The notes below the pieces were generated by a model, which was given only the letters and a program-made list of their open reading frames with translations, was not told the origin of the DNA and did no database searches. A DNA stretch of 64,000 nucleotides from a virus (lineage: Duplodnaviria > Caudoviricetes): IMG/VR virus record IMGVR_UViG_3300032226_000829, one strand, 5' to 3'. Below, piece by piece: positions 3,728 through 29,281 of the stretch. A program made the position numbers and the translations under genes. How positions within the stretch are numbered: position 1 is the first letter of the stretch; each line of letters starts with the position of its first letter.

Positions 3728-4266
3728 TAAGATTTCTCAATAAAATATTGGTCAGCACACCTCTGATGGGCACTGATGCCACATTTGACAAATCTGTGAT
3801 AATGATCTATGAAGAAAGCATCAATCACGTGGCCGGAGTGATATTGAACAAACCCAACATCACCACAGTGAATGAAGTGTTTCGTATCAAAGGATTCAAG
3901 ACCACAGAGTTTCGCAGAGACAAGTTGTTCATGGGAGGACCTGTGAATCATGATCATGTGATGCTGTTGCATTCAGATGAATGGAAAAGCAACAACACCC
4001 TCATGTTGGGCAACGGATATGCCATCACATCTGATCACATCATGCTGGATAAATTTTATCTGGGAGACAGACCAAAATTTTGGAGAATGATCTGTGGCGT
4101 ATCACTGTGGACCCCTGATCAGTTGGAGATGGAGATCAAACGCAAATATTGGATGATACTGGACAATGCCAAAAAAGAAATGATTCAAGAACCCAAGTGG
4201 GCCCGTCAATGGCAACTGTCAGTGGATCAGGTCAGTCAGCAAACCATAGATAAATTCTTCAATTAG
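3724..4266 (+). CDS. yqgE: YqgE/AlgH (DUF179) family protein
   Basis: F.KSVI.I.E...GVILNKP, LFMGGPV, G.S.W...QLE.EI....W family motifs. Confidence 0.85.
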   Translation: MIRFLNKILVSTPLMGTDATFDKSVIMIYEESINHVAGVILNKPNITTVNEVFRIKGFKTTEFRRDKLFMGGPVNHDHVMLLHSDEWKSNNTLMLGNGYAITSDHIMLDKFYLGDRPKFWRMICGVSLWTPDQLEMEIKRKYWMILDNAKKEMIQEPKWARQWQLSVDQVSQQTIDKFFN

Positions 4267-12661: not shown

Positions 12662-12688
12662 ATAAATTCAAGCAAGGACTTTATTATA

Positions 12689-13864
12689 ATGAAATTTACA
12701 CAACTGATCAAAACTCTCACAGCAGAAGACCTTAACAACAGGGTGGCGCAGATGTTTGGTTCTAAAATCAATTTGGAATCATTCACCACAGAACAACTGT
12801 CCACTGCCCGTGACAAATTGGCCAATCAATTATTGACCATTGAAAATCAAACCAACTTTGATGCCATACATTCAAGTGAAGCATATCAAAAAAATAGATT
12901 ATTTTTAAAAGTGATTGAACAAAAAATTGAAGAATTATCACAGACAGATGAGAAGGCACAAAGTCCCTACGCAATAGGCATGGCACAGGCCATGAAGAGC
13001 ACAGGTGATCAACCACCACTTAAAAAATCCACAATTAAAAAAGCACACGATATTGCCAAGTCAGTGGAAAAAAATGAAAGTGAAACCACAGTGGATGAAA
13101 CAATGTCACGTCAACATTTTCAATATGTGGCTGACACATTAAAAGATATTCAAGATCCAGCTAAGAGAGCAGAATATGCCAAACATCATTCGGCCATATT
13201 CCAACATTTTAATCCAAATTTTGATCATGCAAAATTTATGTCAGCAGCAGGAATAGAAATGAAAGAACCAGCAGAAGCAGTGGCCGAAGCCAAACCAGAT
13301 TTTTTAGACATGGACAAAGACGGAGATAAAAAAGAACCTATGAAAAAAGCCATTCAAGACAAAAAGAAAAAGAATATCAAAGAAGGTGCTGAAGAGTCAG
13401 CTAGAATAGTAATGAGCGCCAATGGATTGGTGGACAAAATTACAGGCTGGATGGAAGACACAGCAAAAATGCAAACAGAAGTGATGTTGGAATTAGGCGA
13501 TAGTATCCGAGACGAGATGGGATCTGAAAAATCAGAACAATTTGTTAACACCATGAAACCATCTTTAGAATCATTGTACTCACAATTGGAAACCACAAGA
13601 AAATCATTCACAGACGGCGTAGCTGTTCTGACAGGCGAAGAAGCGCCGGCAACTTTGGGCGCGGATGCTCCAACAGATGACATTGAAGATCTTGAAACAG
13701 AAGTAGAACCAGAAGTAACACCAGACACAGCAGATGACTTCACTGCTAGCGAACCAGCCACAGGCGGTGAAGAACCTGCAGACAGAAAAAAAAGAGAATC
13801 AATCATCAGAAGATCTCCAAGATTGGCAGAAATGCTATCACGCACTTCAAAAAAAAAGGCTTAA
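12689..13864 (+). CDS. Prohead core/scaffold-like acidic protein
   Basis: 391 aa; AEAKPDFLDMDKDGDKKEPMKKA (DxDxDG loop) and several [I/L/V]-x-E candidate protease sites. Confidence 0.55.
   Translation: MKFTQLIKTLTAEDLNNRVAQMFGSKINLESFTTEQLSTARDKLANQLLTIENQTNFDAIHSSEAYQKNRLFLKVIEQKIEELSQTDEKAQSPYAIGMAQAMKSTGDQPPLKKSTIKKAHDIAKSVEKNESETTVDETMSRQHFQYVADTLKDIQDPAKRAEYAKHHSAIFQHFNPNFDHAKFMSAAGIEMKEPAEAVAEAKPDFLDMDKDGDKKEPMKKAIQDKKKKNIKEGAEESARIVMSANGLVDKITGWMEDTAKMQTEVMLELGDSIRDEMGSEKSEQFVNTMKPSLESLYSQLETTRKSFTDGVAVLTGEEAPATLGADAPTDDIEDLETEVEPEVTPDTADDFTASEPATGGEEPADRKKRESIIRRSPRLAEMLSRTSKKKA
13849..13858 (+). other. Slippery A9G tract (A AAA AAG in frame), candidate -1 frameshift site
   Basis: Codons TCA AAA AAA AAG GCT TAA; the -1 frame is open to 14187 and has no ATG/GTG/TTG before 13957. 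Confidence 0.6.
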
Positions 13865-14187
13865 TAGCAGAATCTGAAAACAACGCTCTTATTCAAGTAT
13901 TAAGAAATTTTATTTCCACAGCCAACAGCAATCAGCAATCTGCCTACATCAATTACATGGCACTGAACAAGATCATGCAGAATGTCAAAGGCAATCAATA
14001 CAATTTTGATGCACTTAAAAATGCCTATGACACCGATGTTAATCTTAAATCATTGATCAAAAATTTTGACCGAGATGGTATCACACTACGCACTGATCTA
14101 ACCAAAAACAACACAGCTCCTATCAAACCAAAAAAGAATTCAGTGGATAGATTGGCACAGCAGGCAGTTAAAAAACGATCCAAATAA
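13858..14187 (+). CDS. Frameshift-accessed C-terminal extension (GLIAESENNALIQVLRNF...KKRSK)
   Basis: Frame open from 13768 to 14187; ORF track calls only 13957..14187. Confidence 0.55.
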   Translation, partial: GLIAESENNALIQVLRNFISTANSNQQSAYINYMALNKIMQNVKGNQYNFDALKNAYDTDVNLKSLIKNFDRDGITLRTDLTKNNTAPIKPKKNSVDRLAQQAVKKRSK

Positions 14188-14192
14188 AAAGA

Positions 14193-14221
14193 TTGACACC
14201 CATCCACACAAACTATATACT
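14193..14221 (+). promoter_or_regulatory. sigma70-type promoter, probably leaderless
   Basis: TTGACA-N17-TATACT, 6 nt before ATG 14228. Confidence 0.75.
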
Positions 14222-27709: not shown

Positions 27710-29281
27710 ATGTTATTGGGTTTAATTACATTATTAACAGCATTTGCATTGAGTTCTGCCGCAATTTATTTTTCGGTTGTGGGTCTAGTGGCTATATTTT
27801 CAGGAGCCGCAGGTCCAATCATATTCATGGGAACCACTTTGGAGTTGGCCAAGTTGGTCACTGCCAGCTGGTTGTATCGTAATTGGCATGTGGCAGCAAG
27901 ATATATGAAAGTGTATCTAACCATTTCTATATTCATACTGATGGTTATCACCAGCATGGGTGTGTTTGGATTCCTATCCAAATCACATCTACAACAAGGT
28001 GCCACATCCAGCAACAACACTCAACAAATTTCCATCATCAACAGTCAGATCAAAACAGAACAGGATGTGATTGATCGTCAACAAGACATTATCCGACGTA
28101 ATTCAGGCACAGGTGGTGGCGCAGGTGAACGTGTGAGTCAATTGAGAGATAAAATCAAACAGTTGGATGCTGAAGTCAAAGCCTACACTGATCAAGGTGC
28201 TACCAGCACCATATTCAATGACAAAGTGGCCAAAGGAGTTGCTCTAAAAGAATCACAAAAAGCAGAACGAGACAGAATTGATGCAGAAATCAAACAGTTG
28301 ACCACTGCCAATCAAGGCAATAACTCTGCCGCTGAAGCACAGATTGCTCGCAGTCAACAGAAGATACAACAGTTGATCTCTCAACGAGCTCCATTACAAA
28401 CCACACAGATCACATTGGATGCTGAGATTGGTCCTATCAAATACATTGGAGAATTGTTTGTGGATTTAGGCATGGTGGACAAAGTCAACACTGACATGGC
28501 AGTGCGTTGGATCATTGTGTTGATTATTATTGTGTTCGATCCATTGGCAGTATTGTTACTGATTGCTGGACAACAAAGCATCAAACAACATTATTCAAAC
28601 AACGGCAACGGGGGTGGCAGATCCACTGCTCCAATCATAGATCCTACACCGATCATAAACAGACTATCAGAAAAGTTTAAAAACTTTTCTTTCAAAAAAA
28701 AAGACTCTAGTCTAGATAAACTACCCACATTATCTGAACCCATAGTTGAACCCACAGTTGTTCAAGAACAACCAGCAAAACCTGGATTGAGATTGAGTAC
28801 ATTGTCTTTGCCTAAATCATTCACATTTAAAAAAACAGAAACAGTTGTGCCAACTGAAATACTCACGTCCACTGTGGAAGTCATAGACACTGAAGACGGT
28901 GACACATTGGAGATAGTGACTAAAGAACAAAAAACTAGATTGGATCATTTCAACAGTCAAAAAGACAAAGCCAAACAATGGAAAGGACAGCAGACCAATC
29001 CTAGACACACTATTAAAAGATTAAGATTCAATTATGTGTCAGGAGCCATTGACAAATTACCTTGGGACACAGTGGAAGCAGACATACCGCCCATGCCCAT
29101 AGATCAGTGGAACCAAATGTTGGAAGAAGCAGAAAAAGCACTGGAACAAGACAAAGAGCAAACAACAAAAAGTTACATAATCAAAGAAGATCAACAGCAA
29201 GTGAGAAAAACGGTAGCAGAAGAATACGTTCAAAACCAAGAACAAACAGATCAATCAATCTGGAATCGCATCAAAAAATAA
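27710..29281 (+). CDS. Membrane-anchored coiled-coil protein
   Basis: Three N-terminal TMs, long coiled coil, EIGPIKYI and a further TM (IIIVFDPLAV). Confidence 0.75.
   Translation: MLLGLITLLTAFALSSAAIYFSVVGLVAIFSGAAGPIIFMGTTLELAKLVTASWLYRNWHVAARYMKVYLTISIFILMVITSMGVFGFLSKSHLQQGATSSNNTQQISIINSQIKTEQDVIDRQQDIIRRNSGTGGGAGERVSQLRDKIKQLDAEVKAYTDQGATSTIFNDKVAKGVALKESQKAERDRIDAEIKQLTTANQGNNSAAEAQIARSQQKIQQLISQRAPLQTTQITLDAEIGPIKYIGELFVDLGMVDKVNTDMAVRWIIVLIIIVFDPLAVLLLIAGQQSIKQHYSNNGNGGGRSTAPIIDPTPIINRLSEKFKNFSFKKKDSSLDKLPTLSEPIVEPTVVQEQPAKPGLRLSTLSLPKSFTFKKTETVVPTEILTSTVEVIDTEDGDTLEIVTKEQKTRLDHFNSQKDKAKQWKGQQTNPRHTIKRLRFNYVSGAIDKLPWDTVEADIPPMPIDQWNQMLEEAEKALEQDKEQTTKSYIIKEDQQQVRKTVAEEYVQNQEQTDQSIWNRIKK

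Follow-up and report, generated by a model that had tools for sequence, protein, structure and literature searches.

Known two-product genes and the recoded unit

The familiar cases of recoding in tailed phages are tail chaperones and a few major capsid genes, and frameshift-extended phage proteins include those of T7 gene 10A/10B and the lambda tail chaperone G/GT. The major head protein of Lactobacillus phage A2 is named as a further frameshift-extended case in a passage of PMC10274946. In bacteria, two products are made from one dnaX gene by a ribosomal -1 shift in Escherichia coli and by polymerase slippage on nine A's (A9) in Thermus thermophilus, and the outcome can be the same with either machine (PMC1088944, PMC5009743). 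The locus described here lies in a 64,000-nucleotide stretch of tailed-phage DNA (Caudoviricetes; IMG/VR record IMGVR_UViG_3300032226_000829), referred to below as the window. There, an open reading frame (ORF) of 391 residues (P0002, the carrier) ends on an A9 run, and a 109-codon frame without a start codon of its own (P0001, the extension) continues from this run in the -1 frame. Comparison with related loci argues that the recoding site is real and programmed. The fuller reading, namely that recoding, mainly by polymerase slippage, fuses a winged-helix-like cargo to a scaffold-like carrier for loading into the prohead and subsequent release, is considered slightly better than an even proposition.

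The slip sequences match those of dnaX and of insertion sequences, and as in dnaX one gene would give two products in a set ratio. Unlike dnaX, the slip usually adds a whole folded domain and does not truncate the protein, the gene is a late phage gene and not a replication gene, and no Shine-Dalgarno (SD) or stem-loop stimulators are shared among the lineages. As in T7 10A/10B, phage A2, and lambda G/GT, a minority, C-terminally extended assembly protein would arise by -1 recoding, with the ratio of the two forms set by slip efficiency. However, the extended protein in those systems is itself the functional structural or chaperone form, whereas the present extension belongs to a separate domain family, which elsewhere is free-standing and tagged. 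Since a protease-type site stands ahead of the extension, the domain is probably released, unlike the T7, A2, and lambda forms; the carrier is not the major capsid protein. The alpha-carboxysome scaffold CsoS2 is reportedly made in short and long forms by -1 frameshifting and would be comparable in that recoding yields two lengths of a scaffold, disordered or elongated, for assembling an icosahedral shell; the proteins are unrelated, CsoS2 belongs to a bacterial compartment, and the shift there truncates.

The capsid targeting sequence (CTS) of phage T4 is MKTYQEFIAE (PMC8442874), the T4 prohead protease gp21, which removes the CTS from the internal proteins IPI-III, cuts after L/I-x-E (PMC9026906), and cargo fused experimentally to the C-terminal end of IPIII, a CTS-bearing internal protein, is packaged into heads (PMC9026906, PMC8442874). 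At the sequence level, the carrier start MKFTQL resembles this CTS. As with T4 IPI-III, stand-alone homologues of the extension carry a short tag (M[KR][ILF]xE), the recoded forms carry [I/L/V]-x-E where carrier and extension meet, and the released domain would be small and basic. Unlike the T4 CTS, targeting is proposed to proceed by natural fusion to a whole carrier through recoding and not by an N-terminal tag. The literature search returned no paper describing carrier-extension recoding and none relevant on scaffold frameshifts in jumbo phages. What appears to be new is the gene family, how widely it is conserved among uncultured aquatic T4-like jumbo phages, and the apparent replacement of a capsid-targeting tag by recoding.

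The A run and its conservation among relatives

The carrier frame closes with CGC ACT TCA AAA AAA AAG GCT TAA (13841-13864), in which the heptamer A_AAA_AAG (13852-13858) is in the zero-frame phase. The -1 frame is open from 13771 up to a stop at 14185-14187; read from 13858, it begins GLIAESENN, and the predicted fusion product has 499 residues with the junction TSKKK-GLIAE. The first ATG, GTG, or TTG of the extension is the ATG at 13957 (codon 34), and the 33 codons before it contain no canonical start; gene callers annotate a 76-residue ORF from this ATG and fragments of 70-96 residues in relatives. All these elements (the end of the 391-residue ORF, the in-phase heptamer within A9, the 109-codon frame with its start-less 33 codons, and the GLIAE beginning) had been described correctly in the first-pass annotation of the sequence. 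Two A9 runs were observed in the window against 3.2 expected from shuffles; a lone A9 run is within chance in such A-rich DNA, and the case therefore rests on comparison with relatives.

A total of 2823 database relatives of P0002 were found at E<=1e-3. The best 120 of these (59-100% identity, on contigs of up to 333 kb) nearly all end in KKK[A/V/S] followed by the stop, and the longer proteins among them have internal insertions and not C-terminal fusions. For comparison, 79 IMG/VR loci (given L numbers below) were fetched, 53 of which matched the extension by tblastn, with extension identity down to 29%. The upstream gene ends in A9 (A10 in L013 and L057/L058) in 51 of these 53 loci, and the extension is in the -1 frame at all 51 except L013 (A10); none of them has a conserved start. 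The 28 distinct junction sequences, from about ten lineages, have diverged flanks around an unchanged C/G-A9-G, and the zero-frame stop lies 0-4 codons past the run (0-1 codons in most lineages). A profile search with the extension against 1.84 billion representative proteins gave 612 matches at E<=1e-3. The best 150 included 148 new sequences, 64 of which are start-less fragments shorter than 104 residues; where such fragments were sampled (L088-L091), all four have a P0002-like gene ending in an A run upstream and the extension in the -1 frame. In all, about 55 related loci share an A run of at least nine and this layout. Across lineages, the extension is under purifying selection at 26-69% identity.

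Most relatives close the run as A9-G; L057/L058 and L090 have A10-T there, and L091 has A9-C. Ahead of the Lys codons, the synonymous position (TCA, GGA, or ATA) is invariably A, which extends the run from eight to nine; in carrier-family genes, GGA makes up only 14% of GGN codons, and Lys is encoded by AAA (80%) and AAG (20%). With the run kept while its flanks diverge and the preceding synonymous A invariant, the alignments indicate that selection acts on the nucleotides of the run and that its constant feature is nine or more A's and not AAG. On this comparative evidence, the recoding site is real and programmed. The first-pass annotation had proposed a programmed -1 frameshift and asked whether the slippery site and the missing start are conserved in relatives, and in both respects the relatives bear it out; a shift by the ribosome specifically is not established, and transcriptional slippage on A9, named there as an alternative, is favoured by the A10-T and A9-C lineages. 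The features of the unit are listed in Table 1.

Table 1. Features of the recoded unit in the window
Feature	Coordinates	Strand	Basis
Late-promoter-like motif TAAATAAAT, ~22 nt before the start codon	12659..12667	+	Occurs once in the window
Shine-Dalgarno-like AAGGA, 10 nt before ATG 12689	12674..12678	+	Sequence
Zero-frame carrier gene (P0002), acidic (isoelectric point 5.1), predicted all-helical, scaffold-like	12689..13864	+	ORF, AlphaFold2 (AF2), PHROG match
Slip site, A9 then G (TCA AAA AAA AAG)	13849..13858	+	Sequence; A9 = 13849-13857, G = 13858
Extension (P0001) in the -1 frame, 109 codons + stop, no own start codon	13858..14187	+	Translation, tblastn homology
Zero-frame stop TAA, one codon past the slip site	13862..13864	+	Sequence
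I-A-E, candidate T4-type prohead-protease site (L/I-x-E)	13864..13872	+	Sequence; predicted cleavage
Folded core, winged-helix-like, extension residues 8-78	13879..14091	+	AF2, predicted local distance difference test (pLDDT) ~90, topology H-E-H-H-H-E-E
Conserved basic C-terminal helix (..RLAQQAVKKR..; consensus MAKRATKKR)	14140..14169	+	Alignment; AF2 helix 95-104

Explanations of the frame change

Most expression of the late carrier gene would stop at the zero-frame TAA and give the 391-residue acidic helical protein, and a minority of products would shift by one base within A9-G and go on in the -1 frame to give the 499-residue fusion. The shift would arise mainly when RNA polymerase inserts an extra A while transcribing the A9 tract; in lineages having A_AAA_AAG, -1 slippage of the ribosome on this heptamer probably plays a part too, and both routes would lead to an identical protein. 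Programmed transcriptional slippage is known from Thermus dnaX, 9A/9T insertion sequence (IS) elements, and Shigella mxiE. The nine-A length is used for this purpose by Thermus dnaX and many IS elements; in many bacteria, slippage during transcription becomes effective at nine A's, and selection against slippage-prone runs shows at this length (PMC1088944). As the shared mechanism, RNA polymerase slippage is somewhat more likely than the ribosome, because no stimulator is shared, the synonymous A that lengthens the run is invariant, and AAG has been lost in three lineages with at least nine A's; both machines may act together.

The same recoding and the same product could also come from an essentially ribosomal -1 frameshift on A_AAA_AAG, of the kind known from E. 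coli dnaX and the IS3 family, with the extra A's aiding E-site re-pairing or being incidental, and this explanation is plausible, if on the less likely side. The heptamer is in phase, the zero-frame stop follows closely in most lineages, and AAG closes the run in most of them against the 80:20 bias towards AAA, an ending predicted by ribosomal slippage on A_AAA_AAG and not required by polymerase slippage; still, three lineages swap AAG for AAA-T or AAC and keep at least nine A's. Stimulators of -1 frameshifting (a stem-loop or pseudoknot 5-9 nt downstream, an SD-like box upstream) are common but not obligatory. Hairpins 4-7 nt downstream are found in some AAG-TAA lineages (L049, L039, and L053, z -2.1 to -2.9), but no downstream RNA structure shared across lineages was found, the fold z-scores being mostly between -1 and +1 (for the downstream 60 nt of the window, -7.2 kcal/mol, z -0.6 versus shuffles), nor was an SD-like box found upstream of the slip site, either in the window or shared among relatives. 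In E. coli, A_AAA_AAG is far shiftier for the ribosome than A_AAA_AAA or A_AAA_AAC, and among heptamers it shifts most readily in bacteria that have a single tRNA-Lys (PMC5009743). Even so, the heptamer does not need the invariant ninth A, and RNA polymerase should slip on an A9 tract anyway (PMC1088944).

Two ordinary genes, with the downstream ORF using a start of its own, internal (such as ATG 13957) or non-canonical, or being re-initiated after the TAA, and with the A run encoding a lysine-rich C-terminus, would match the annotations produced by gene callers but are very improbable. The 33 codons ahead of this ATG are conserved as protein and are therefore coding: the tblastn match starts from extension residue 1 in relatives down to 40-48% identity and from residues 5-11 in more distant ones. 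The first canonical start of the extension occupies differing, non-homologous positions among relatives, other lineages have Val, Ala, or Asp in place of Met34, and close to the stop there is no conserved near-cognate start. The open -1 frame of L027 begins four codons ahead of the run. In L091, this frame begins just one codon ahead of the run, with the zero-frame stop one codon past it, so that the frame change is possible only inside the run; CTC and three Lys codons are all that lies between the extension of this locus and the -1 frame stop upstream of it. The domain is truly a separate gene with an SD and ATG in the two relatives without an A run (L041 and L069), but their carriers have no KKK end, and the lysines therefore serve the slip site and are not a requirement of the protein.

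Independent data support A9 in the window. An independent DNA contig (X8) crosses the run as A9 with no gap, and contigs from RNA libraries of two studies (X15, 13401-14017; X16, 13580-13921) likewise read A9 with no difference and no gap, which answers in favour of A9 the A9-or-A10 question raised with the first-pass annotation. Consistent with A9, nearly all of about 120 protein clusters in the database end directly behind KKK[A/V/S]. No fused homologue of the extension longer than 191 residues was found by the word-based search, and the exhaustive profile search gave one in-frame carrier-extension fusion among the best 150 of the 612 matches. An assembly artefact hiding a true A10 and a plain 499-residue fusion, or a dying remnant without a start, is the least credible explanation of all, since A9 recurs, besides these contigs, across about 50 assemblies made independently from many samples and lineages, fusions are as scarce as just stated although L013 reads A10 and the L087 lineage is fused in frame, and purifying selection together with a confidently folded core excludes decay. 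Programmed recoding with polymerase slippage as its main route is retained as the preferred reading.

L013 reads A10 (582-591) and is fused, whereas L012 reads A9 (4179-4187) and is split; these are near-identical IMG/VR contigs from different samples, and the difference is either a homopolymer error or a real population variant arising by replication slippage. In L087 (P0211), carrier and extension are fused in frame (CSKKK-ISE|D) and A9-G is still kept; in this single contig, a 63 kb ENA scaffold with the junction at 4077-4094, the -1 frame reads GAT AAG TGA and stops two codons on. A slip there would yield the short form, the reverse of the window layout and similar to dnaX, in which the long form is in frame and the slip leads to a stop. 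The fusions in L013 and L087 indicate that carrier and extension joined in one protein are viable in nature. The clade appears to show the unit in several switch states: a separate tagged gene (L041 and L069), an out-of-frame fusion (most lineages), and an in-frame fusion from which a slip would make the short form (L087).

The only other A9 run of the window (28694-28702) lies within ORF 27710-29281, in frame (AAA AAA AAA GAC). Both shifted frames stop there in 2-5 codons, and a slip would truncate the 523-residue protein near residue 333. A9 or A11 is kept at this site in relatives at 76-84% identity (L092, L093, and L096); L094, L095, and L098 (59-79% identity) also have A9 runs, possibly homologous to this one. 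A second dnaX-type slippage site is one possibility, a mere conserved Lys run the other.

Carrier, extension domain and head loading

The AF2 model of the carrier is all-alpha and non-compact, with long helices at residues 230-277 and 279-315, disordered acidic linkers at 192-233 and 318-361, a predicted template modelling score (pTM) of 0.27, and about 28% of residues below pLDDT 50. P0002 matched phrog_14154 ('virion structural protein') with an E of 1e-10, 11 of 21 family members match this PHROG, and the MKFTQL start takes the form MK[FIL]x[QE][LF] in all lineages. Upstream, TAAATAAAT was read as late-promoter-like from the T4 late-promoter consensus, TATAAATA, and a (C/A)TAAATAAA motif followed by AGGAA precedes the homologous gene in most related lineages. 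The carrier is scaffold-like and probably head-associated. Its conserved neighbours are a DUF6267 ligase-like gene, small unknown genes, NifU, an exonuclease, an Mtd_N/pectate-lyase fibre gene, and NrdAB. Owing to this non-head neighbourhood, the protein is termed scaffold-like and not filed as a scaffolding protein. The first-pass description of a scaffold-like head protein is supported only indirectly, by the acidic, helical character, the CTS-like start, the late-promoter-like motif, and the PHROG match, and weakened by the position outside the head module. Searches of Pfam gave nothing credible for the carrier or the extension (ApoLp-III, at E 0.008, was below the family cut-off), a PDB sequence search with the carrier profile gave no match at E<=1, and ESM Atlas returned for the carrier only unnamed viral clusters with scores below 0.9, one of them with DUF3008 in 41% of its members.

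The carrier family has a conserved N-terminal part of 85 residues, variable middle modules, a conserved helical C-terminal half, and a basic end. A 20-residue motif, KPDFLDMDKDGDKKEPMKKA (P0002 residues 202-221, window 13292-13351), is nearly unchanged in 21 aligned members, and its D213 is present in 19 of the 21 although overall identity falls to 46%. The motif looks like a DxDxDG calcium-binding loop and matches phrog_24078 and phrog_2922, both of unknown function; a literature search for the invariant motif KPDFLDMDKDGDKKEP gave nothing relevant. The module SPYAIGMAQAMKSTGDQPPLKKSTIKKAHDIAK (P0002 residues ~88-127, window 12950-13070) is present or absent among close relatives and has counterparts with 50-55% identity in the hypothetical gp114 of Synechococcus phage S-RIM8 and in other cyanomyophages. 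Short, swappable modules make up a cassette in the middle of the carrier family. When 50,697 cultured phage genomes were searched by tblastn, the extension had no match, and the carrier shared only a 60-residue module with S-RIM8 gp114 and had no cultured relative.

In the extension, a folded core is followed by a tail (residues 81-109, isoelectric point 11.3) in which a disordered linker leads to the C-terminal helix; after removal of GLIAE, the domain would comprise 104 residues with an isoelectric point of 10. Its best structural matches are all winged-helix proteins but weak (Foldseek E >=0.08; VIA Z 6.0 to the MCM8 winged helix 6l0o, with a root mean square deviation of 3.2 A over 68 residues, and to JetABC chain 8dk1_E), although the modelled topology fits a winged helix; the domain is possibly DNA-binding. 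In other phages, the same family occurs as one module of much longer proteins, N-terminal in P0133 (463 residues), P0140 (771 residues), and P0141 (261 residues) and C-terminal in P0256 (213 residues), where it is bounded by Glu-ending linkers such as ARRQNE|S. From these arrangements, the extension domain is read as a mobile module of head-type polyproteins.

The I-x-E site at the junction, proposed in the first-pass annotation, has counterparts in all recoded lineages, in which [I/L/V]-x-E occurs within the first 3-7 extension residues (IAE, VIE, IIE, VVE, ISE, LSE, VTE, VNE, and IKE). Extension residues 1-5 have pLDDT below 50 in the AF2 model and are therefore read as a flexible linker. 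Stand-alone homologues carry the tag instead, starting with MKIFELMEE|A in L041 and MRLFELAGD|S in L069. Among the best 150 of the 612 matches, 58 of the 75 full-length homologues (104-140 residues) start with M[KR][ILF]xE[FVIL], and MRLFEV occurs twelve times. The simplest reading of these patterns is that the extension domain is a prohead cargo, which most phages tag and which the recoded clade fuses to a tagged carrier. Consecutive or nearby genes of the window begin with tags of the same type as the stand-alone homologues: MKLVEF (8585), MKIVEI (11334), MRLKEF (11657), MKINEL (12043), and MKFTQL (12689). Head cargo may be encoded by the entire block that precedes the recoding site.

In the proposed loading route, the carrier with its T4 CTS-like N-terminus would bring the fused domain into the prohead, where a T4-type prohead protease would cut after [I/L/V]-x-E and free the 104-residue basic domain. 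The freed domain would be an internal head protein, possibly DNA-binding and ejected, and the slip frequency would set the copy number of the packed domain. Head location, cleavage, domain function, and the machine that slips are inferred, whereas the conserved slip site, start-less extension, and x-E motif and the tagged stand-alone homologues are seen in the sequences. That recoding acts in this clade of giant T4-like phages as a capsid-loading device, by which a cargo domain gave up its own start and CTS-like tag, is loaded by slip-dependent fusion to a prohead core protein, is cut free, and is packed and ejected into the host in copies set by the slip frequency, is tentatively suggested, at rather less than even chances.

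Several observations count against the combined reading of polymerase slippage, head loading, and release. The carrier gene lies between the ligase-like gene and the NifU, exonuclease, and Nrd genes, away from capsid and protease genes. Within the carrier, [LIV]-x-E is not enriched (6 observed versus 6.3 expected), and the internal AE/KE sites pointed out earlier have no statistical weight. The gp21 and gp23 families (PF03420 and PF07068) were not found in the related records G001-G006, which are 7-41% complete by CheckV, with control genomes also giving no signal; the T4-likeness of the window itself is based on its T4_gp9_10_N and Gp44_lid (Gp44-like) matches. The winged-helix assignment of the extension is weak at Z 6. 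The AAG ending of most runs and the lineage-specific downstream hairpins (z -2 to -2.9) also fit ribosomal frameshifting. Finally, X15 and X16 show A9 and no A10, at a depth of 4-7 and as contigs, which show the major form and drop minority variants.

Downstream of the unit, a near-consensus sigma-70-type promoter (14193-14221; TTGACA, 17 nt spacer, TATACT; 11/12 positions) begins 6 nt past the extension stop and ends 6 nt before ATG 14228 of the NifU-like gene. From this position, the recoded unit closes its own transcription unit, and the NifU-like gene looks leaderless.

The source of the window is an uncultured giant T4-like lake phage whose relatives are abundant and aquatic, and for this group the finding has consequences at several levels. 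Thousands of database entries split the unit into a 391-residue protein and a meaningless fragment of 70-96 residues. The natural series of A9-G, A9-C, A10-T, and in-frame junctions lets polymerase and ribosomal slippage be separated. The unit extends the T4 capsid-targeting idea, already used for engineering phage cargo, and suggests a new way in which these phages may dose a packaged, probably ejected protein with predicted DNA binding.

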